From NCBI GenBank assembly GCA_963753065.1, contig CAVWAQ010000002.1, positions 535 to 64,534 on the forward strand: a DNA stretch of 64,000 bases. Direction: 5' to 3'. Positions 3,928 through 63,109 of the stretch are shown piece after piece. The position numbers and the translations under genes were made by a program. The first letter of the stretch is position 1. Each line of letters starts with the position of its first letter. A model generated the notes under the pieces. It was given only the letters and a program-made list of their open reading frames with translations. It had not been told where the DNA came from and did no database searches. The DNA is from Candidatus Bathyarchaeota archaeon (GTDB lineage: Archaea > Thermoproteota > Bathyarchaeia > 40CM-2-53-6).

Positions 3928-4296
3928 TTATGAGCTCATGCTTGCCGTAACAGTCACCGTGCTTGTGCTAGTCGTATACTGCACCGTGGTCCAGACACCG
4001 TAGGCTAGGCTTGTCAGAATGGGCCAGATGGTTGAGATTGTCCAAATGGTCGTGGTCGTATAGATGATTGTAGTAACAGTGGCATTGGACGCCTACTGAG
4101 CAAACAAAGACGCACCAGCATAAACTCCCGACCCGGCCGAAAGCATGACCGCAAGCATCAGCAGCACCGCCACTAATGCCGAACGCCCTGGCTGACTACC
4201 GGAAGCATGATCGTCAGCTTTGTTCTTCAATTCTTTCTCCTTCTCTTTTCTTCCCGAAGTCACTTGTTTGACTCGAGTTCTTGCCTGAGCGTTCAT
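3928..4296 (-). pseudogene. Truncated, nonsense-interrupted paralog of the N-terminus of the LamG surface protein at 44155-45111
   Basis: ALVAVLLMLAVMLSAGSGVYAGASLFAQ-TAG-ASNATVTT...YGVWTTVQYTTSTSTVTVT parallels VLMAVLLVLVVLLSLGSGLYAGASFFPQQASNVTTT...YGVWTTVQYTTSTSTVTVT. An in-frame TAG replaces a Gln codon, and the copy ends before the LamG domain. Confidence 0.6.
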
Positions 4297-4514
4297 CTAA
4301 CGGCGCTTCCGACCAGTGCCTCGGACAGAGTGGCTGTTCTATCCTCGGACTTCTGCGACTCTGCCCAGATCTCCAAAGTATGACGGGTATTGTTCTCTGC
4401 TGAACGCTATCCATGCTGCTCTCCGAATCCATATGCGGTTCGTTACTAAACGCTCTTGTAGTTGACACATCCCGGGGGGTAGAACAGTGGTAGGTGTCGC
4501 GAGAAACCCTTAAC

Positions 4515-4898
4515 TGATTCTCTTCGCGACTGAAGTCGCGGAGATTCATGCTTCCACCGCTGGTCCTTTGTTGGGTGGGCATTCCGTTGTTGCGGTTCCA
4601 CCCGCATCCATCCCAGCGCAGAAGCATAGGCCAAACCATCGGCCTGACGGCGTACCCGCCGCAGCGAGCCGCCATATTCACGACGCCTCTACCTACTCGA
4701 GCCTGCCCCGCCTATTTTCGGTTGAGAGCCTTTTTCGAGCCTTCGGACATCTCAACCACATCTGAGCCTACTGTCCCTTTTGGGATTGTCTCATTCGGCC
4801 CAGGAGATCCGGTGTGTGCGAGACATTTAAGCTGCAGGGGCTCGCTTACTCCACACCTAAAGTCGCGAGCTTGCGCTCCCCCCATTATGGTCAACTAT
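4515..4898 (-). repeat. Copy A: hairpin repeat unit interrupted by a structured insert of about 325 nt (candidate non-autonomous mobile element or ncRNA)
   Basis: The minus strand reads TGACCATAATGGGGGGAGCGCAAGCTCGCGACTTTAG | GTGTGGAGTAAGCGAGCCCC...GGTGGAACCGCAACAACGGAATGCCCACCC...GGAAGCATGAATCTCCGCGACTTCAG | TCGCGAAGAGAATCAG. The last ~190 nt are about 90% identical by eye to 58290-58466. Confidence 0.7.
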
Positions 4899-37360: not shown

Positions 37361-38056
37361 TTGAAAATTGAATCTCTACTATTTTCGATAGATGACGTGC
37401 TATATGATACGTCCCAACAGCTGAGCGCTTCCAGAATGAGCGCTGTAATGGCGATGAAATCAGCCGGACTGCCCATCGACGTTGAAACAGCCTATCGGAA
37501 GCTGGATGAGATCGCTAAGGAGAGAGGCCCGGACGACACAAGACACTTCGACACGTTGCTGGAACGTCTAGGCCTCAAATGGAGCCCCGAGGTCATAGCA
37601 GCAGGCGTAGTCGCTTACCGTGCGACGAGCCCTATCTACCTGACGCCGTTCCCTGACACCGCCCCCACGCTCCTGAAACTCAGAGATGCTGGATACAAGC
37701 TCGGTGTCGCCTCGAAGGGCCGAGCCGTGAAGCAGTGGCAGAAATTGATCCAGCTTGGCTTGGAGTACGTGTTCCACGCCGTCACCATTTCCGAAGAGAC
37801 AGGATCCGAGAAACTCACCACGGACACACTATCTAGGACACTCGAGAGACTGGGCAACGTGAAGCCTGAACGGTCGCTCTTCGTAGGTTCCGACTTGGCG
37901 AATGAAATCGCACTTGCAAATGCGGCCAAGATGATCACCGTAAGGATCAAGACTGGAGCGCATCGAACAAGCACACCCAAAACTGCCGAAGAGAAACCGG
38001 CGTTTGAGATAAACAGACTGTCAGACATGTTCGAGATCCTACGGACGAGCACCTAG
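37361..38056 (+). CDS. HAD-superfamily hydrolase (phosphatase)
   Basis: The TTG start gives motif I as SIDDVLYDT, a degenerate DxDx(T/V). Other motifs are VASKG and VGSDLANE. Confidence 0.7.
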   Translation: MKIESLLFSIDDVLYDTSQQLSASRMSAVMAMKSAGLPIDVETAYRKLDEIAKERGPDDTRHFDTLLERLGLKWSPEVIAAGVVAYRATSPIYLTPFPDTAPTLLKLRDAGYKLGVASKGRAVKQWQKLIQLGLEYVFHAVTISEETGSEKLTTDTLSRTLERLGNVKPERSLFVGSDLANEIALANAAKMITVRIKTGAHRTSTPKTAEEKPAFEINRLSDMFEILRTST

Positions 38057-38419
38057 GATCGCAAGTTCGCTCCAACCGAGACTGATTGAGCTCGGGCTTA
38101 AGCACATATCCGTGTCGTCACCATACCAGTAGAGGCCGGGTCGGAAATCTTCAACACGGAGGCCGTTTCCAAGATGGCGCGCTCCTTGGAAAGGCGCGGC
38201 GTAGGTAGGTGCCTTCGTTTTGGTGTTGAGAAAGAAGGGCGTAGTGATGCGCGGGCTCACGGTGGCGAATCTTCAGGCCTCATGCGCGTAATCTGAAGGG
38301 CATATGCAGTAGATGGCGTGTCAGTTTCATCGCACATGTCTCGTCCCCTTCGTGTCCGCAAAGGCGACGAGGTAAGACTTAAGATTCCGTAATACTCCTG
38401 CCTGTGTAAGGGATGGAAT

Positions 38420-39109: not shown

Positions 39110-39260
39110 AAGGAAGTCGCTTAGCCGCTCGGCATTGGCAGAAACTGATTACTGATCCAACTGGGACTGGAGCGCATCGAACGAGCACACCGAAAGTCGT
39201 CGATGAAGAACCGGCGTTCGAGATAAGCAGACTCAGATACAGTCGAGATTGTCGGGCGGC
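39110..39260 (+). pseudogene. Internally deleted fragment of the HAD gene at 37361-38056
   Basis: GGCATTGGCAGAAACTGAT...ACTGGAGCGCATCGAACGAGCACACCGAAAGTCGTCGATGAAGAACCGGCGTTCGAGATAAGCAGACTC parallels 37731-37752 and 37949-38020 of the intact gene. Confidence 0.55.
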
Positions 39261-45639: not shown

Positions 45640-46620
45640 CGCATGTGCAGGCAGCTGAGCACTTCCAGAATGAGCACTGTGAGGGCGATGAAATCACCCG
45701 GACCGTCGACCGACGCTGAAACCGCCTACCGCAAGCTAGAAGATCGCTATAGAGAGGCCCGGACGACCCAGGACGCTGACACCTTGCTCGAACGCCTCGG
45801 CTTCAAATGAAACCCTGAAGTCATAGCGGCCGGGAAAGTCGCTTACCGTGCGACGAGTCCGATCTACTTGGTGCCATTCCCTGACACCGCGCCCAGGCTG
45901 CCGAAACTGAGCCGTTGGGTACAAGCTCGGCGTTGGCTCAAAAGGCCGAGCGGTGAAGCATTGGCAGAAACTGACCCAGCTTGGGCTTGAGCACATATCC
46001 AATGCCGTCACCGTACCAGAAGAGGCCAGATACCAAGCCCTCAGGACGGAGGCCCTTTCCAAGATGGCGCCCTGCTCGCCACTGCGCGTGCTCCTTATTC
46101 CAACTACTACAACCTCGTGAACGTGGAGGAGATCTTCGCCTTCTGAAGGTCAATTGGGCAGGCTGCGCTGAAGTGGCTCGTGATATCTTCGCACACAAAC
46201 GGCGTGTTCTGGGTAACTCGGTATCCGCGATCGCGAAACGCCTCGACATGATGAGAAGTTAACCCGACATCTTCTGCATGAGCGCAGTCTTCATGGCAGG
46301 CTAGGTAATCATGAATCCTTTCAGACGTGGACTTCGCTAGAGCGTCCTCCGCCTCACTACTCGATGTCTAAAACTCAAGCCTGTTGCCGACACGTATGTC
46401 TTGGCGCATAGAGGGAGGGGCGTAGTGATGCGTGTCCTCACGTTGGCAAATCCTCAGACTTCGCACAACATGCAGGGAAGATCAAGTAGACTGCCCGTCG
46501 GGTCCTCCCTTTCCTCGTGTCCATCGAGTCAAGTATCAGTTCGTCGCCGAAGTTCCCATGCTCGTATCAGCCGAATACTATCGTGCTTATCGTCATCTCT
46601 GTCCGAAAGCACCACTCATC
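45640..46620 (+). pseudogene. Mosaic of decayed fragments homologous to the HAD gene (37361-38056), its downstream region, and the 3' end of the kinase gene (35228-36214)
   Basis: 45640-46000 parallels 37418-37770 (translated: STSRMSTVRAMKSPGPSTDAETAYRKLEDRYREARTTQDADTLLERLGFK vs SASRMSAVMAMKSAGLPIDVETAYRKLDEIAKERGPDDTRHFDTLLERLGLK). 46225-46300 parallels 35955-36030 (CGCCTCGACATG...CCCGACATCT). 46410-46470 parallels 38235-38290 (GGGCGTAGTGATGCG). Confidence 0.6.
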
Positions 46621-47239: not shown

Positions 47240-47700
47240 TGATTGATAGCGGAATCACGTGGCGTGGAACAGGAAATGCTTTGAAACTGTATCGCTTCTT
47301 GAAGAAGGCAAGAGTTCGATCGTCTAACATAGTCGTAGATGAGCTTCGATGCTTTGTTTCGAATGACCCAAGGTGCAATTGCAGATGTCATAGCATCACT
47401 TGATGTCCTACCGAAGTCACTGCTTCGACTTATGAAGCTGTGCTGAAGGGGTCTGCTGCAGATGAATCGTTACATCCATCAACATTACAAGGCGCGCGAC
47501 GGTGAAGCGGGTTCTCGCGGGATCGCCTTCCCATTTTTGCGACCAACAACTTCCAAGTCGAAACTGTTGACGAACGGTAAGTCCATATCATCCACGATGA
47601 AAGGGATGCGTTTGGTCGCGTAATATGTCTTGATCATTGAATCGCCTGCGGTTCGTCGAACAAACGGTCTAGCGGAGTCATCGTCTTTGCGGCTTGAGGG
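47240..47700 (-). pseudogene. Decayed fragments of a second copy of the acyltransferase-like gene at 48634-49392
   Basis: 47411-47437 (GAAGTCACTGCTTCGACTTATGAAG) is identical to 48851-48875. The translated remnant ...IYDYVRRSNSCLL resembles MYDYLGDDSLGFF. Confidence 0.4.
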
Positions 47701-48646: not shown

Positions 48647-49392
48647 CGTCTGAAAAAACGAAGGACGAGGCTGCCTCTAATACTTAAGGGAACGGCGTAT
48701 CGCGGAATCGGGAGGGGGCAAAATCCGTGACGGCGCTTAAAGAATCCAAGACTGTCATCACCCAAGTAGTCGTACATGAGCAGCTGTATCTGATTCTGAG
48801 TCGCCCACTCAACGATTCCCGCAAGGAGTCGATCATTCGGTTTCTTATCGAAGTCACTGCTTCGACTTATGAAGGATGCCACAATAGCGAAGCCCTCGCT
48901 CATTGACGGTATCACTCTCGCTGCGCCGACAATCCTATCACCTACGAGGCCACGAAAGAAAACAGACTCGTTGCGCCTGACCATGATCCTTTCCAGTTCA
49001 GCGGCATCAATACTGTGAAACGGGAAAGGCCGTCCTTGTCGTTCTTCAATCTCCGCGTATATTGAGGCAATTGCATCTGTTCCATCATCAACGGTACACT
49101 GCTCAACGCTTGTTCTCGAAGTGCGGATTGCGTGTCGAACACGTTTGTCGAGGCTTCCGTACCAACAATCATACGAATCGGGCAGTCGGAGGACAGCTAG
49201 AATGTTCCGTTTCAGGATCGTGTCGTCGGATGTCTGCCGTTTCACCCAATTCCGTCGCCAGTACGTGAATATGTCCAAGCCTGAGAGGTCGGTTCCCTGA
49301 GGAACGCCGTCCAAGTCAGTGAAGTATTCTTCCGTGTGATTGATTGATCCTAGCACAATTCCGTGCTGCTTCCATCTTTCCATGTGGATCAT
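48634..49392 (-). CDS. GNAT-fold/FemAB-like acyltransferase (uncertain subfamily)
   Basis: The 252-aa ORF has a C-terminal half (FFRGLVGDRIVGAARVIPSMSEGFAIVASFISR...KPNDRLLAGIVEWA) resembling the FemAB/BioF2-like acetyltransferase_6 fold. This call is from pattern only. Confidence 0.5.
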   Translation of the reverse strand: MIHMERWKQHGIVLGSINHTEEYFTDLDGVPQGTDLSGLDIFTYWRRNWVKRQTSDDTILKRNILAVLRLPDSYDCWYGSLDKRVRHAIRTSRTSVEQCTVDDGTDAIASIYAEIEERQGRPFPFHSIDAAELERIMVRRNESVFFRGLVGDRIVGAARVIPSMSEGFAIVASFISRSSDFDKKPNDRLLAGIVEWATQNQIQLLMYDYLGDDSLGFFKRRHGFCPLPIPRYAVPLSIRGSLVLRFFRRWLQ

Positions 49393-50660: not shown

Positions 50661-51010
50661 CTACTTCCAAGGCAATAAAATGGTCATTAAGCTGTCGCTT
50701 CTTCCCGCTGCATGACCCCCAATCTGGCATTCTACTAGTGGAAATCCAAGGGCATGCATTAGTGCTTCAACATGGTATCCTGATGCGTCTTGGTGGAACT
50801 CAGCAACGGATCTTAGTTCGCCGAGCTCACCTTTTGCTGTGCGGAACTGGAGCATACCGAACTATCAGCCCAAGAGTGTCTGACAAGAAACCTGCTTCTG
50901 AGAAAAGCAAGCTCTCGCAACTCCTCGATGTCGTGCGACCAAGTGATTGAACGCCCTTGGTCCAGAGCCATTTTGACAGGAATAGGAAGGGAATCACAAC
51001 TCAGTTCTGC
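50661..51010 (-). pseudogene. Possible remnant of a methyltransferase-like gene
   Basis: ORF 50661-50855 (GELGELRSVAEFHQDASGYHVEALMHALGFPLVE) resembles the C-terminal part of class I methyltransferases. The upstream frames are interrupted. Support is weak. Confidence 0.25.
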
Positions 51011-57720: not shown

Positions 57721-57951
57721 GTGAATCTGTTAATGTCCGAGGAAAGATCCGGTGGCAGATCCTTCAACAAGCCAGTTGAAGAGGGCAAAGAGTACGAGGT
57801 TGACATCAAAGAGACCAGCCGCAAAGGCGACGGTGTCGCCCGCGTGGAAGGCTTCGTCATCTTCGTCCCCGAGACCAAGCCTGGTGACCACGTGAAAGTG
57901 CGTGTTACTCAGGTCGGCCCCAGATTTGCAACCGCCGAGGTCGTCAAGTAG
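57721..57951 (+). CDS. TRAM-domain protein
   Basis: PVEEGKEYEVDIKETSRKGDGVARVEGFVIFVPETKPGDHVKVRVTQVGPRFATAEV is the canonical small archaeal TRAM sequence pattern. Confidence 0.75.
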   Translation: MNLLMSEERSGGRSFNKPVEEGKEYEVDIKETSRKGDGVARVEGFVIFVPETKPGDHVKVRVTQVGPRFATAEVVK

Positions 57952-58036
57952 ACGCCTCCTACAAAAACCACCGAACGTTTCGGTGCTGCAATACTCCATT
58001 TTTTCTTTCGACCTATTATGCGTGGGCTGGCTCCCA

Positions 58037-58473
58037 TGACCATGATGAGAGCGCGTGCAAGCTCCTCTCTTCAGACATGGAGTAAGCGAGCCCTCAGCAG
58101 TCTCAAGCGAGCGGCAGCATAGCCCCCAAACGAGCCATTGAGACTCGCGACGAACAGCACCCTGAACGCCAATTGTGGCCACGGTTGAATACATGACCAT
58201 AACTGGACGAGCGCAAGCTTCCGACTTCAGTCGCGGAGACAATCAAATGCAGTCTCTTGGATGGATTGTGGCTTAGAGGCGCACCGGGACGCAGTTGGCG
58301 TCTTGAATATAGCTGCTCGTTACGGCGAGTATGCTGTCAGGCCGATGGTTTGGCCTATGCTTCTACGATGGGATGGATGCGGGTGGAACCGCAACAGCGG
58401 AATGCCCACCAAGCGAAGAGGATCATTGTGGAAGCATGAATCCCCGCGACCTTTAGTCGCGGAGAGAGTCAAG
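58037..58473 (+). repeat. Copy B: hairpin half-unit + structured insert (with a nested intact hairpin unit at 58194-58246) + terminal hairpin
   Basis: TGACCATGATGAGAGCGCGTGCAAGCTCCTCTCTTCAG | ACATGGAGTAAGCGAGCCCTCAGCAG...GGTGGAACCGCAACAGCGGAATGCCCACC...GGAAGCATGAATCCCCGCGACCTTTAG | TCGCGGAGAGAGTCAAG. It is collinear with copy A. Confidence 0.7.
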
Positions 58474-58771
58474 ATTCAAGCAAGCCTATGTTCTGTAACT
58501 TCCGGACTCTGGTTTCATGGCCCGAAGTTTACCTCGGGGAGCCTTGGAAGCTAAAGGAAGAATAGGTCTAGGTTGGGGATGTCAAGAGAGGGAGCGGGTC
58601 AATCTGTCAATCGAACGAGTTCTATTCTCGTGTGCACCCCGGACGGGACTCCCAAGTGTTCAGCTAGGGAAGACCGTCAGAGTGTCGTTGCGGAGGCATT
58701 CATGGGCTGAATCGCGAGGGAAGAGAAAAGGTTATTTGTGGTATTTTGGCATAGCTCTGGCTGGTGGTAAA

Positions 58772-59038
58772 ATGGCACAGGTCGTCGAAAGTGACGCGTC
58801 AGGAAGGATAGTAATCCCGAAGACCGTGCGCCAGGCGCTGGGAATCAAGGGGAGGACGCGGTTCCTGCTCGTGGAGCGGGGCGAGGGTCAACTGATGCTC
58901 CAAAAACTCGAGGTTGATGAGATTGCACGTAGACTTGAGAGGGAGCTCGCTGGAAAGGACATCGATGCCATTGTTCGAAAAGTCAGAGAAGAAGTCAACA
59001 AGAAGATCAAGACCCAGTATCCGGACCTTCTTCGTTGA
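58772..59038 (+). CDS. AbrB/SpoVT-type antitoxin
   Basis: The internal ATG at 58772 is preceded by GGTGGT. DASGRIVIPKTVRQALGIKGRTRFLLVERGEGQLML is the AbrB-like signature. Confidence 0.8.
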   Translation: MAQVVESDASGRIVIPKTVRQALGIKGRTRFLLVERGEGQLMLQKLEVDEIARRLERELAGKDIDAIVRKVREEVNKKIKTQYPDLLR

Positions 59039-59450
59039 CAGCAACGTCTTCATCGCCGCCATAAAGAATCCGAGGAAGCGCACACGGACGCTCGAGCTAC
59101 TCATTAGGATGATCGAAGATCCAAGCATCAGTCTCGTTGGAAACGAGCTCCTCACATATGAGATGCTGCGCTACGCGGAGCTCCTGAAGTCCCCTATTGC
59201 CGCGGCTCTCGTTGCTGCTCTCCTTGACAAGACCGCCATTGTCTCAGTCTCGGAGAACTATCGGAGGGTATGTACGGCTTATCTCAAGACGCCTGACCCA
59301 GCAGACGTGCTACACGCCGCAACATGTCTCCAGGCCGGCGCAGTGCTAGTAACGAATGACCGCCACTTCAGAAGAATAAAGAAGAAAGGCATAATCGATG
59401 TCTGGACAATTGCAGAGGCAATCCGAAGGTTGATTAGCTCTTCGGAATGA
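58965..59450 (+). CDS. vapC: PIN-domain toxin (VapC-like); start uncertain
   Basis: The PIN motifs are FFVDSNVFIAA, GNELLTYE, DVLHAATCL...VTNDRHF. The nearest in-frame ATG is at 58965, overlapping the antitoxin. Confidence 0.7.
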   Translation: MPLFEKSEKKSTRRSRPSIRTFFVDSNVFIAAIKNPRKRTRTLELLIRMIEDPSISLVGNELLTYEMLRYAELLKSPIAAALVAALLDKTAIVSVSENYRRVCTAYLKTPDPADVLHAATCLQAGAVLVTNDRHFRRIKKKGIIDVWTIAEAIRRLISSSE

Positions 59451-59627
59451 ATGCTCCGCCGCATCAGAATTGGCGAACGTTGCCTCCTCCTTCACTTTCG
59501 ATATCGATGCTCGTGTGGTAGAAGCCTCGGTGTCCAAGCCGTGTGAGACGTGCTGCCGAAGGCTCTCCGCGCTATGACTGCGGATCCCGTTCTTGGAATC
59601 ATATTGCATCAACTGGAGTTGCAGGTC

Positions 59628-59696
59628 CTGACCATAACTGGCCGAGCGCAAGCTCCCGACTTCAGTCGAGGAGAGAATCAACAGTTGTGTCGGTCA
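59628..59696 (+). repeat. Intact hairpin repeat unit D
   Basis: The sequence is CTGACCATAACTGGCCGAGCGCAAGCTCCCGACTTCAGTCGAGGAGAGAATCAACAGTTGTGTCGGTCA. The central hairpin is CTCCCGAC-TTCA-GTCG(A)GGAG. Outer short inverted repeats are TGACC/GGTCA and AACTG/CAGTT. It lies between convergent TA modules and overlaps the vapC stop codon (59694-59696). Confidence 0.6.
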
Positions 59697-60074
59697 ATCG
59701 AATAGCTTCAACTCGTGTGCTCTTAGGGGTTTGAAGTGTCTAAGGTTCAGGGTGTATAAGCTTGCTCCGTTGTTGATCGTCACGGCGGCTATGATCGCAT
59801 CTGTTCTACGTATGGTTGTGCCGGCTTTCTCAGTCTCCGCCTCCAACTTGGCGGATAGTTGCGCGTCTTCTTTTCCGAAGCTTAGCACGGGTAACTGTAG
59901 AACTTCTCTTACGGGTTTAGCGTATTTGTGCAAGCCGTACATGATCTCGTGGAGGTTTATCGCGGTAATGCTGATCTTGTCGTCACTTTCAAGGATCTTT
60001 CTCAGGGCTTCATCGCCCTTCCCGGATCGTTTGTCGAAGATCTCAATCAGAACGCCGGTATCCAGTACTACCAT
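59694..60074 (-). CDS. vapC: PIN-domain toxin VapC
   Basis: The PIN signature is MVVLDTGVLIEIF...ITAINLHEIMYG...DAIIAAVTINNGASLYTLNLRHF. Confidence 0.85.
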   Translation of the reverse strand: MVVLDTGVLIEIFDKRSGKGDEALRKILESDDKISITAINLHEIMYGLHKYAKPVREVLQLPVLSFGKEDAQLSAKLEAETEKAGTTIRRTDAIIAAVTINNGASLYTLNLRHFKPLRAHELKLFD

Positions 60075-60283
60075 GTTCTGCGCTCGACTCTATGAGTTTG
60101 GATTTCTGAAAGCATTCGCTCCTTGTCCGTGAATTCGACGCATCCCCTGAGCTTCTTCAGGAGTTCCGGCGTGCTGATGTCTTCGGTGAGCCTTTCGAAT
60201 AGTTTGCTGAAGCTTTCGTCTCTTCTCTTGACCGCCAGGAGCTTCCTGTAAACTTCATCGCGTATCGTTATGGTCTTCGTCAA
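60068..60283 (-). CDS. vapB: VapB-like antitoxin (small ribbon-helix/DUF217-like)
   Basis: The 71-aa ORF begins MTKTITIRDEVYRKLLAVKRRDESFSKLFERL and overlaps the vapC start by 7 nt. Confidence 0.75.
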   Translation of the reverse strand: MTKTITIRDEVYRKLLAVKRRDESFSKLFERLTEDISTPELLKKLRGCVEFTDKERMLSEIQTHRVERRTW

Positions 60284-60447
60284 GGCTCCTCAATGGAGCG
60301 GGGATGTTTAAACATAGATTTAGACCCACGACCACGCTTCGCGCCCAGATTTCGCGCTTAGCTTCTTCCATGGAAAATATGTGCGCGTCTATGATCATGT
60401 CGACTCTACCGCCATCGATCGCACGTATGACATCATCATAATTCGTA

Positions 60448-60499
60448 GCCACGACTAGGCGAGTGCGAGCTCCCGACTTCAATCACGGAGAGAATCAAG
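60448..60499 (+). repeat. Degenerate hairpin repeat unit E
   Basis: GCCACGACTAGGCGAGTGCGAGCTCCCGACTTCAATCACGGAGAGAATCAAG is the same unit with a weakened 3' arm. It overlaps the stop of the 60495-60749 gene. Confidence 0.5.
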
Positions 60500-61689: not shown

Positions 61690-63109
61690 GGCTGGCCGAA
61701 AATTCATAGCGGTTGACTTGGTTGTGTCAACTGCGCTTCTTTTCGGTTTCTGGGCTCACTCGGTTCTGCGCCGAGTTCATCCCCAGCTTGGGCCAAGCCT
61801 ACTGTGGCCCTTCGGGTCGTGGCCAATGGCAAGAAACGCGACCCGATATTCAATGCGCCAACATAGTCCGCGTTGTAGATGAGCTCACAGCCCCAGCAGT
61901 GGAAGATGCTCTGCGTGGGACGGTCCGTGTTCCGTGAGCCGCAACGCGGACAAGTCATGCTCGTCCACCGCTCATCCACGACGCGGACGGGGATGCCGTG
62001 TTCAGCGCATTCTTCTTGGATGAAGCGTATGGCACGGCCATACGCCCACCCAGTCAACAGTCTACGCAGGTACGGCTTCCCGTTACCACGATATGCGCTA
62101 CGATACTTCAACAGCTTCGGGTGTCCGACCGCGACGAGCGTACGATTCGATAGATCCGCGACCTGTTTCGCCATGAGATGGTCATAGTATTCTGCCACGT
62201 GCATACGTTTGTGTCGGAGACGCTTCAGTGGTTCCCACTTTCGCGCCCGCTGCAGCTCCGCGATTCTGCGGTTCAACATTCGAAGACGGGCACGCTTCGT
62301 ACCACCCCGAACCGTCTTGAAGTCGTATCCTCCGAGCTGCTTCATGGCTACAGTTGCTACTGAGCGTTTCACGCCGAGGTCTATCCCGCGCACTGCATGG
62401 GCTGGCTGGTCGGGGACGCTGTACTCAACCTTCACATGAACGTAGTATTTGCCATCGCGTTTCACAAGCTGGAAGCTCTTCAAGTCACTCTTCGACAGCA
62501 GATCCAGATGGTACATCGCAGGATTCAGTGGAATTGTGAGCTTTGCGCCTCTTCGCAGCGTGGAGACACGTGCGACGCACGGGCATAGTTTCGCCCTCTC
62601 AGATTTCTCGATAGAGCCGAGTTGGCTGTCGAACCATATTGGAACCTTACGGCGCATGCCTTTCGTGAATGGCTTCTGGGGTTCACGTTTCAGCAGCCGC
62701 CGCAGCCATCGCCAATCTCCGTTCCGTCTCGCTTCGGCGACCTGCCGTCGCCATTTACGATGCAGTGTCCTGTAGCTGCTCCACATCCACTTCGTCGTAT
62801 CGTAGCAGCATTGAACCATATGTCCAGGCAGATGCGTCTCAGCCTTCACCTGTTCGTAGAACCGCGCCCTATCCGCATAGGTGCCTTCCAGGTTGTACTC
62901 ATCGAACCGTTTCGACCAGAGACAAACACCATATGTCAGTCGAGCCGTGAGCTTGTCGAGGATGCAGCGTTTCCGCTCCGTTAACGCGTAGTGAACCGGC
63001 ACACAAACAGTCTTGACAACCTGCAAGGCTGACAATTCCTTCTAGTTGAAGTTTAAATGGGCGAGAGATGAGTGAAGATTAACACGTCAGTGGCGATTTC
63101 CGGCCAGCC
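61690..63109 (-). mobile_element. TIR-bounded 1,420-bp element carrying only a tnpB gene
   Basis: GGCTGGCCGAAAAT (61690-61703) and ATTTCCGGCCAGCC (63096-63109) are inverted repeats matching at 13 of 14 positions. One lies immediately outside the tnpB stop and the other about 60 nt upstream of its start. There is no tnpA. An ATTTAAAC TATA-like box (complement 63058-63051) lies inside the element. Confidence 0.65.
61704..63035 (-). CDS. tnpB: TnpB (IS200/IS605 OrfB-family RuvC-like RNA-guided nuclease)
   Basis: The 443-aa ORF has a TTG start. RuvC-I is RGIDLGVKR, RuvC-II is VRVVDERWTS, the zinc finger is CPRCG...CWGC, and RuvC-III is NADYVGALNI. Confidence 0.9.
   Translation of the reverse strand: MSALQVVKTVCVPVHYALTERKRCILDKLTARLTYGVCLWSKRFDEYNLEGTYADRARFYEQVKAETHLPGHMVQCCYDTTKWMWSSYRTLHRKWRRQVAEARRNGDWRWLRRLLKREPQKPFTKGMRRKVPIWFDSQLGSIEKSERAKLCPCVARVSTLRRGAKLTIPLNPAMYHLDLLSKSDLKSFQLVKRDGKYYVHVKVEYSVPDQPAHAVRGIDLGVKRSVATVAMKQLGGYDFKTVRGGTKRARLRMLNRRIAELQRARKWEPLKRLRHKRMHVAEYYDHLMAKQVADLSNRTLVAVGHPKLLKYRSAYRGNGKPYLRRLLTGWAYGRAIRFIQEECAEHGIPVRVVDERWTSMTCPRCGSRNTDRPTQSIFHCWGCELIYNADYVGALNIGSRFLPLATTRRATVGLAQAGDELGAEPSEPRNRKEAQLTQPSQPL

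Follow-up and report, generated by a model that had tools for sequence, protein, structure and literature searches.

Two gene-less repeat copies in a Bathyarchaeota contig as probable IS200/IS605 derivatives with a tnpB tail and putative ωRNA

We identified two copies of a gene-less repeat, copy A (380 nt) and copy B (436 nt), in a 64-kb stretch of a Candidatus Bathyarchaeota contig (hereafter the window). Both ends are common to the two, and the copies are very probably PATEs, i.e., internally deleted IS200/IS605 derivatives that carry the tail of tnpB and, within it, a putative ωRNA (Table 1). This assignment draws on directly observed homology, element boundaries, target site, palindromes, and an extra constraint on the tnpB tail. 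An earlier note on this DNA had taken the pair for a non-autonomous mobile element that is present in several copies, its ends being conserved and its interior variable, which is supported by our analysis, and every string quoted in it recurs at the position it had given, with copy A on the minus strand. MAFFT alignment of the two copies matched the left ends and the 3′ block, and the middle parts were unrelated. The shared module comprises ~175 nt and is 86–89% identical between the copies; the previous estimate of ~190 nt at ~90% was thus essentially right and slightly generous, as gapped blastn aligned 176 nt at 85.8% (winB 261–435 vs winA 207–379) and a repeat finder returned an ungapped inverted repeat of 122 nt at 89% (4566–4687 / 58297–58418). 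A 29-nt core of the module occurs three times in the window (zero expected), the third occurrence being a truncated copy that is absent from the earlier note.

Table 1 Positions of the repeat copies, their parts, and related units in the window
Feature	Position	Strand	Basis or remark
Copy A, probable 380-nt PATE; TGAC at 4893–4890, putative ωRNA/right-end module at 4682–4514	4514–4893	-	R1 186.5 bits
Copy B, whole	58037–58472	+	
Target TGAC, adjoining left end of copy B	58037–58040	+	left cleavage site, predicted TnpB TAM; host-derived
Left end (LE) of copy B	58041–58092	+	blastn, winB 1–65 vs LE of L015: 89%
Left guide tetranucleotide CAAG of copy B	58058–58061	+	within LE
Degenerate left subterminal palindrome of copy B, CTCCTCTC-TTCA-GACATGGAG	58062–58082	+	followed by conserved TAAGCGAGC
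Interior of copy B, source not found	58093–58193	+	~100 nt
Nested 53-nt terminal-only PATE	58194–58246	+	repeat family D7; LE and RE blast matches
Terminal ~225 nt of parent element in copy B	58247–58472	+	holds TnpB remnant, scaffold, and right end
TnpB C-terminal coding remnant, ~56 aa, GHRDAVGVLNIAARYGEYAVRPMVWPMLLRWDGCGWNRN..., including RuvC-III Asp motif	58261–58428	+	tblastn
Predicted ωRNA scaffold and right end (RE) of copy B	58302–58472	+	covariance model R1
Right guide GAAT of copy B	58438–58441	+	within RE
Right-end palindrome of copy B	58442–58464	+	within RE
Right cleavage site TCAA of copy B	58469–58472	+	within RE
Predicted guide segment of copy B ωRNA, in flank	58473–58488	+	position adjoining RE boundary
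Truncated third copy of module core, internal deletion joining to ...GAGAATCAA	2689–2739	-	R1 46 bits, model positions 70–120
53-nt terminal-only PATE	59629–59681	+	D7, 92% to nested unit; LE and RE matches
Diverged 53-nt terminal-only PATE	60446–60498	+	D7, 77%; RE match; R1 12 bits

Scanning one genome per species for exact matches to GGAACCGCAACANCGGAATGCC (22 nt) returned 23 loci, 16 of which, from seven Bathyarchaeia MAGs, carry the whole module; in all 16, similarity stops abruptly after ...GAGAGARTCAA. Seven bacterial matches (L007, L010, L013, L016, L017, L020, L021) were discarded as chance, having only the 22 nt in common, within conserved protein-coding context. The module forms the 3′ terminus of an ORF of 408–435 aa with Pfam OrfB_IS605 and Cas12f1-like_TNB domains in L005, L008, and L019, and the tnpB ORF terminates in ...CLDCGLEGHRDAVGVLNMAARCGEYAVRPMAWPMLLRWDGCRWNRNNGMPTQQRIGVEA*. 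On related Bathyarchaeia contigs the block constitutes the terminal ~190 nt of an IS200/IS605-family element of 1.36–1.74 kb, spanning the last ~55 codons of a 408-aa tnpB ORF and the right end. L008 additionally encodes a 143-aa tnpA directly upstream of tnpB (Pfam Y1_Tnp, E 2.3e-36), which is broken in L005 and L019 and absent from L015. The OrfB_IS605 ORF and the Y1 tnpA beside the module identify the parent as an IS200/IS605-family insertion sequence and the module as its tnpB tail plus right end, not as a free-standing new RNA module. Both window copies are too short for a transposase gene; what they encode is the C-terminus of TnpB, with 42–56 residues left and 79–90% identity, the remnant in copy B being 79–83% identical to the TnpBs of L005, L008, and L019 (tblastn, E 1e-23 to 1e-25).

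The parental TnpBs are homologous to solved TnpB/Cas12f chains, and their HRDAVG motif lies opposite ADYNAARNIA of a solved homologue in the PDB alignment. D186, E279, and D359, in the motifs IDxGV, IGEL, and HRDAVG, are invariant in four aligned TnpBs; going by TnpB/Cas12f motifs, we take them to be the RuvC Asp/Glu/Asp residues. A protein-based metagenome scan found at least 322 relatives, and the 80 of these 322 that were compared are 74–100% identical. At least 12 metagenomic loci among the 80 compared contain tnpA, with the HUH motif (PDHxH) and the C-terminal Tyr intact in most. The TnpA of two identical elements (L008 2140–2568, minus strand; L024 2073–2501) has DQLH in place of the HUH motif DHLH of other copies and, judging by this substitution, may be catalytically impaired. 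The block is multi-copy, with three occurrences in the window, and a single fragmented MAG contributed as many as 12 loci; viral contigs gave no match. No cognate tnpA or tnpB was found within the 64-kb window. A second, unrelated TnpB gene is located at 61704–63035 (minus strand; 443 aa, Cas12f1-like TNB domain); it was rejected as the cognate protein on account of ~29% identity and a 3′ region that does not match the module.

The limits of the element run from TGAC| to TCAA|, with random flanks beyond, as seen in sequence logos (50 distinct flanks on the left, 89 on the right); TGAC is kept in 48–50 of the 50 distinct left flanks and is preceded by random sequence. The LE (TGACCATAACTGGNCGAGCGCAAGCU + palindrome + UAAGCGAGC) and RE (GAAU + palindrome + AGARUCAA) were located in all loci by blastn-short. 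There are no terminal inverted repeats, and both ends have a subterminal imperfect palindrome with one extrahelical base in its 3′ arm, which reads CTCC-UGUC/CGAC-loop-GACA/GUCG-(U)-GGAG on the left and CUCC-CGAC-UUCA-GUCG-(C)-GGAG, in direct orientation relative to the left one, on the right. The left palindrome occurs in two compensating versions, CGAC/GUCG and UGUC/GACA. In the right-end palindromes at 4514–4545 (minus strand) and 58442–58464 (plus strand) of the window, in L018a, and in L068, an extra G pairs the otherwise bulged base (CTCC-CGAC becomes CTCCGCGAC), which reflects either variation between lineages or the disappearance of the extrahelical base. At L054 the element interrupts a PIN toxin gene. 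The GTTGAC|ACGAAC junction of the in-silico empty site restores the N-terminus VDTNIF, with which the protein aligns to the Pfam PIN profile from position 3 onward; this match is destroyed if TGAC is omitted. This reconstruction identifies TGAC as host target and places the insertion 3′ of TGAC without target duplication.

Elements with these common ends fall into size classes of ~1740 nt (tnpA and tnpB), ~1360 nt (tnpB only; the commonest class with 26 copies), ~380 nt, ~165 nt, and 53 nt. Five 53-nt units were counted, three in the window and two elsewhere; the intact unit that had been reported within copy B is real and has the two further copies listed in Table 1. The two palindromes together form a direct repeat (CUCCCGACUUC...GUCGNGGAG), and a deletion between them gives exactly TGACCATAACTGGNCGAGCGCAAGCTCCCGACTTCAGTCGNGGAGAGAATCAA, the 53-nt unit. 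To judge from this correspondence, the unit is a derived form in which the LE is fused to the RE across the shared palindrome. Such a collapse has a precedent in Haloquadratum, where repeat-mediated deletion from one near-terminal palindrome to the other reduces 1.5-kb IS605-type elements and PATEs to terminal-only PATEs of 52 bp, short forms that may themselves be mobilised (Dyall-Smith et al., PMC3119063).

Copy B contains a unit of this kind with its own TGAC (58194–58197), the 5′ part of an LE, one palindrome, and AGACAATCAA. Homology to tnpB restarts directly 3′ of the nested unit in the nhmmer profile search, so the unit marks the border between recognisable and unrecognisable sequence. 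The interior at 58093–58193 had no match to the full-length elements (n = 37, nhmmer profile) or to other loci (blastn, tblastn); it aligns weakly and collinearly to L019 and is possibly a decayed tnpB zinc-finger region. The architecture of copy B is unique among the >100 loci. Its left palindrome, read from the sequence, has one stem mismatch to the CTCCTGTC consensus; copy A has a weak left palindrome and a mutated right cleavage site (TCAG, not TCAA). Because of these damaged ends and the lack of own proteins in the window, both copies look impaired as transposons and their present-day activity is doubtful.

Copy A represents a family of ~380-nt elements. Over its full length it shares 89% identity with L001 from a Bathyarchaeia MAG, and the ~380-nt form, with a common interior that does not stem from the insertion sequence, recurs at about 10 separate loci across several MAGs, which means that the short form itself must have spread. 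The same short form at several loci was seen for this family and for the 53-nt units, and not for copy B. Within the ~380-nt family the module is 90% identical vs 71% for the interior, and the ~150-nt interior has no relation to the parent element. Eight predicted pairs with compensatory changes are contained in this interior (window 4688–4837, minus strand, and homologues L001, L003, L009, L011, L012, L014, L023, L068), which may, according to the predicted pairing, be a structured RNA or a single-stranded DNA cargo.

The module appears to be under a constraint beyond that of the coding sequence. Pairwise identity at third codon positions of 37 full-length elements ranges from 0.55 to 0.78 along tnpB and reaches 0.91 in the final 150 nt, a rise that argues for non-coding constraint overlapping the ORF end. 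RNAalifold predicted two 5′ hairpins, a 10-bp closing helix (AUGCUUCUAC/GUGGAAGCAU) around a GGGUGG...CCACCC hairpin, and the right-end hairpin, and the helices previously pointed out (GGGUGG...CCACCC enclosing CCG...CGG; AGGCC...GGCCU) are present in this fold. In 100 distinct copies, 97.4% of cells are paired in the predicted fold; its frequent variation is AU/GU or GC/GU, with G·U tolerated on the tnpB strand only. Double changes were found at 12 pairs vs 1.6 in shuffles; as the alignment (A7) was fitted to the model, they support the fold but do not prove it, and the nearly invariant scaffold makes for a thin covariation signal. In the window, a covariance model built from the module alignment (R1) detected both full modules, a fragment, and the hairpins of the three units, and it gave 108 matches in the loci; copy B was matched over the full length of the model with 175 bits (E 3e-42). 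The module lies on the tnpB strand and extends from the tnpB 3′ end to the RE boundary. As position, strand, and constraint match those of TnpB ωRNAs, we read it as an ωRNA scaffold, and the module most likely encodes the scaffold of a TnpB guide RNA. We infer its transcription, its use by TnpB, and any present-day mobility from sequence features. High conservation of the module in the PATEs could be due to gene conversion from full-length copies or to recent origin, not selection.

None of the 4227 Rfam models (release 15) reached the gathering threshold anywhere in the window, nor was there a match at E<=10 within 57900–58700; Rfam models are expected to include the IS605-orfB and HEARO motifs. 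A tRNA and tmRNA search found none, and two proteins encoded in the window had no identical entry on record. Neither copy's predicted guide matches a second target elsewhere in the window. A group II or group I intron, considered because of the GUGUG start of copy A and a GNRA hairpin, was dropped, as the start of copy B differs and the block is tnpB coding sequence.

Several other repeats and mobile-element remnants were recorded in the window and at related loci. A diverged left end (plus strand) at 2597–2739 faces an inverted 51-nt module fragment ~30 nt away, forming a head-to-head remnant pair, and the TGAC of this left end overlaps the stop codon of a KaiC-like ORF (1844–2599). Copy B and two 53-nt units are interleaved with a toxin-antitoxin cluster at 58517–60300, which consists of a MazE/AbrB-like and a PIN gene (58517–59450) and another PIN gene (59694–60074, minus strand); the related insertion sequence in L054 also lies within a PIN gene. 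The module and a ~430-nt PIN gene remnant form tandem arrays of diverged copies with a period of 617 nt (three copies in L054, 1730–3128; two in L067, 3592–4376), and these arrays probably arose by unequal crossing-over between modules. Further repeats comprise a ~0.85-kb duplication of a HAD-hydrolase gene end and adjacent sequence (37418–38281 and 45652–46462; 8.2 kb apart, 72–84% identity) and short dispersed repeats of 69 nt (37951–38019, 39165–39233, 50845–50913) and 43 nt (47395–47437, 48832–48874, 4249–4273).

The window copies closely resemble the PATEs of Haloquadratum walsbyi and Geobacillus stearothermophilus (PMC3119063; PMC10055086), which are likewise gene-less, have similar near-terminal palindromes at both ends, lack inverted terminal repeats and target duplications, and originated from IS605-type elements by core deletion. 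Terminal-only forms have nearly the same length (52 bp in Haloquadratum, 53 nt here), some known PATEs keep a C-terminal tnpB coding region or an ωRNA, and nesting in other IS605-type elements occurs as well. PATEs 'often encode ωRNAs' for use in trans (Meers et al., PMC10055086). The elements described here differ in their hosts, which are soil and sediment Bathyarchaeia, in their unrelated sequence, in the target TGAC, and in the ~380-nt family with its foreign interior and some compensatory base changes.

Mechanistically, the reference for single-strand transposition in the IS200/IS605 family is IS608 of Helicobacter pylori, in which tnpA (Y1) and tnpB have the same orientation, as here, and which has the same type of imperfect subterminal palindromes with an extrahelical base and the same guide/cleavage pairing logic; the family described here is known from sequence alone. 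In IS608 the left cleavage site TTAC is recognised by the guide AAAG and the right cleavage site TCAA by the guide GAAT (PMC5934647), where cleavage position 1 pairs with guide position 2, position 2 with position 1, and position 4 with position 4 (PMC5934647; PMC3201880). Right guide and right cleavage site are identical in the two systems, whereas the left guide and target are CAAG and TGAC here. In a test on the sequence, CAAG predicts T-G-x-C under the IS608 scheme, in agreement with the observed TGAC. The left cleavage site and the left palindrome are 20 nt apart here vs 19 nt in IS608 (PMC3201880), and TCAA end and palindrome foot 8 nt here vs 10 nt (PMC3201880), for which counting conventions may differ. 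TnpB ωRNAs such as that of ISDra2 (PMC8612924) also lie on the tnpB strand, overlap the ORF 3′ end, and run to the RE boundary, take their guide from the flank, and have a TAM equal to the transposon target motif, the latter two features being predictions here. The module differs from such ωRNAs in having no sequence or Rfam-model similarity to them and in standing without its protein in the window.

The parent element carries tnpB, encoding an RNA-guided RuvC nuclease, and in some copies tnpA, encoding a Y1 HUH transposase, between an LE and an RE with similar bulged subterminal palindromes. TnpA cleaves 3′ of both the target motif and the right-end motif and thereby excises the top strand as a circle, which is reinserted 3′ of a target motif (PMC3201880, PMC5934647); TnpB and its ωRNA cut the emptied, TAM-flanked donor site, and recombination restores the element (PMC10055086). 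The element described here inserts 3′ of TGAC, presumably as single-stranded DNA, and ends in TCAA without target duplication. Its ωRNA would extend at the 3′ end into the flanking DNA, and this extension would direct TnpB to the vacated site next to TGAC, allowing an excised element to be regained. We infer TGAC as the TAM and the 16–20 nt after TCAA as the guide. Copy B is composed of a left end, ~100 nt of interior, a nested 53-nt element 3′ of an internal TGAC, the tnpB tail with the putative ωRNA, and a right end, and the 53-nt units would be leftovers after core loss between the directly repeated LE and RE palindromes. As the window holds no matching tnpA or tnpB, mobility or guide function would need proteins in trans.

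The two readings that start from the hairpins or from the block itself have little to recommend them. The earlier note had placed the junctions inside a hairpin unit, which would imply that a non-autonomous element was inserted in the loop of a pre-existing 53-nt hairpin repeat, with the half-units as the split target and the intact unit in copy B as a nested or recombined target. The left and right half-units do rebuild a 53-nt unit, but every one of the >100 copies has them, full-length tnpA-tnpB elements from unrelated genomic surroundings among them, and hence they are mobile DNA, namely the LE and RE palindromes of the element itself. Moreover, flank conservation ends at TGAC and TCAA, outside the half-units, the insertion in L054 interrupts a PIN gene and not a hairpin unit, and the left-end palindrome is a complete covarying hairpin in its own right; we regard a hairpin target as highly improbable. 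Even less credible, to the point of being negligible, is that the block represents a separate gene for a structured RNA, regulatory or housekeeping, that stands beside the repeats by coincidence. The stable predicted fold and its conserved helices are what such a gene would offer, yet the block is in frame with tnpB and forms its end, exists in multiple copies, is always followed by the RE palindrome and TCAA, and has no match in Rfam.

More weight is due to the possibility that copies A and B are pseudogene debris, decayed in place from full-length elements and never mobilised in short form, and that the module has no remaining function. The unique architecture of copy B, the damaged ends of both copies as read from the sequence, and the lack of cognate proteins in the window are in its favour, but it does not accommodate the ~380-nt family of copy A, whose shared foreign interior recurs at about 10 loci in several MAGs, or the higher identity of the module than of the interior within that family. 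For the two copies together we consider decay in place possible, though unlikely; for copy B alone it is plausible. Going further than the PATE reading, the gene-less copies might be kept for working ωRNA modules, i.e., as orphan guide-RNA genes with flank-derived guides that act with TnpB in trans, with the interior of the ~380-nt family possibly an added structured RNA domain and the 53-nt units perhaps mobile. We regard this scenario as rather improbable.

With the assignment of copies A and B as IS200/IS605-type PATEs, puzzling repeats of an uncultured archaeal lineage can be attributed to a well-understood transposon family, and the region becomes annotatable, with TGAC as the target and TCAA as the right end, together with a C-terminal pseudogene of tnpB and a putative ωRNA. 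Copy B is an ordinary, already described kind of mobile-element relic, and the window copies add a further natural example of ωRNA-bearing, protein-less derivatives, not a new type of element or RNA. The parent elements belong to a large IS605 family of Bathyarchaeia that comprises at least 322 metagenomic loci. With its ends defined and its TAM predicted, this family may be of interest for the mining of compact TnpB editors.
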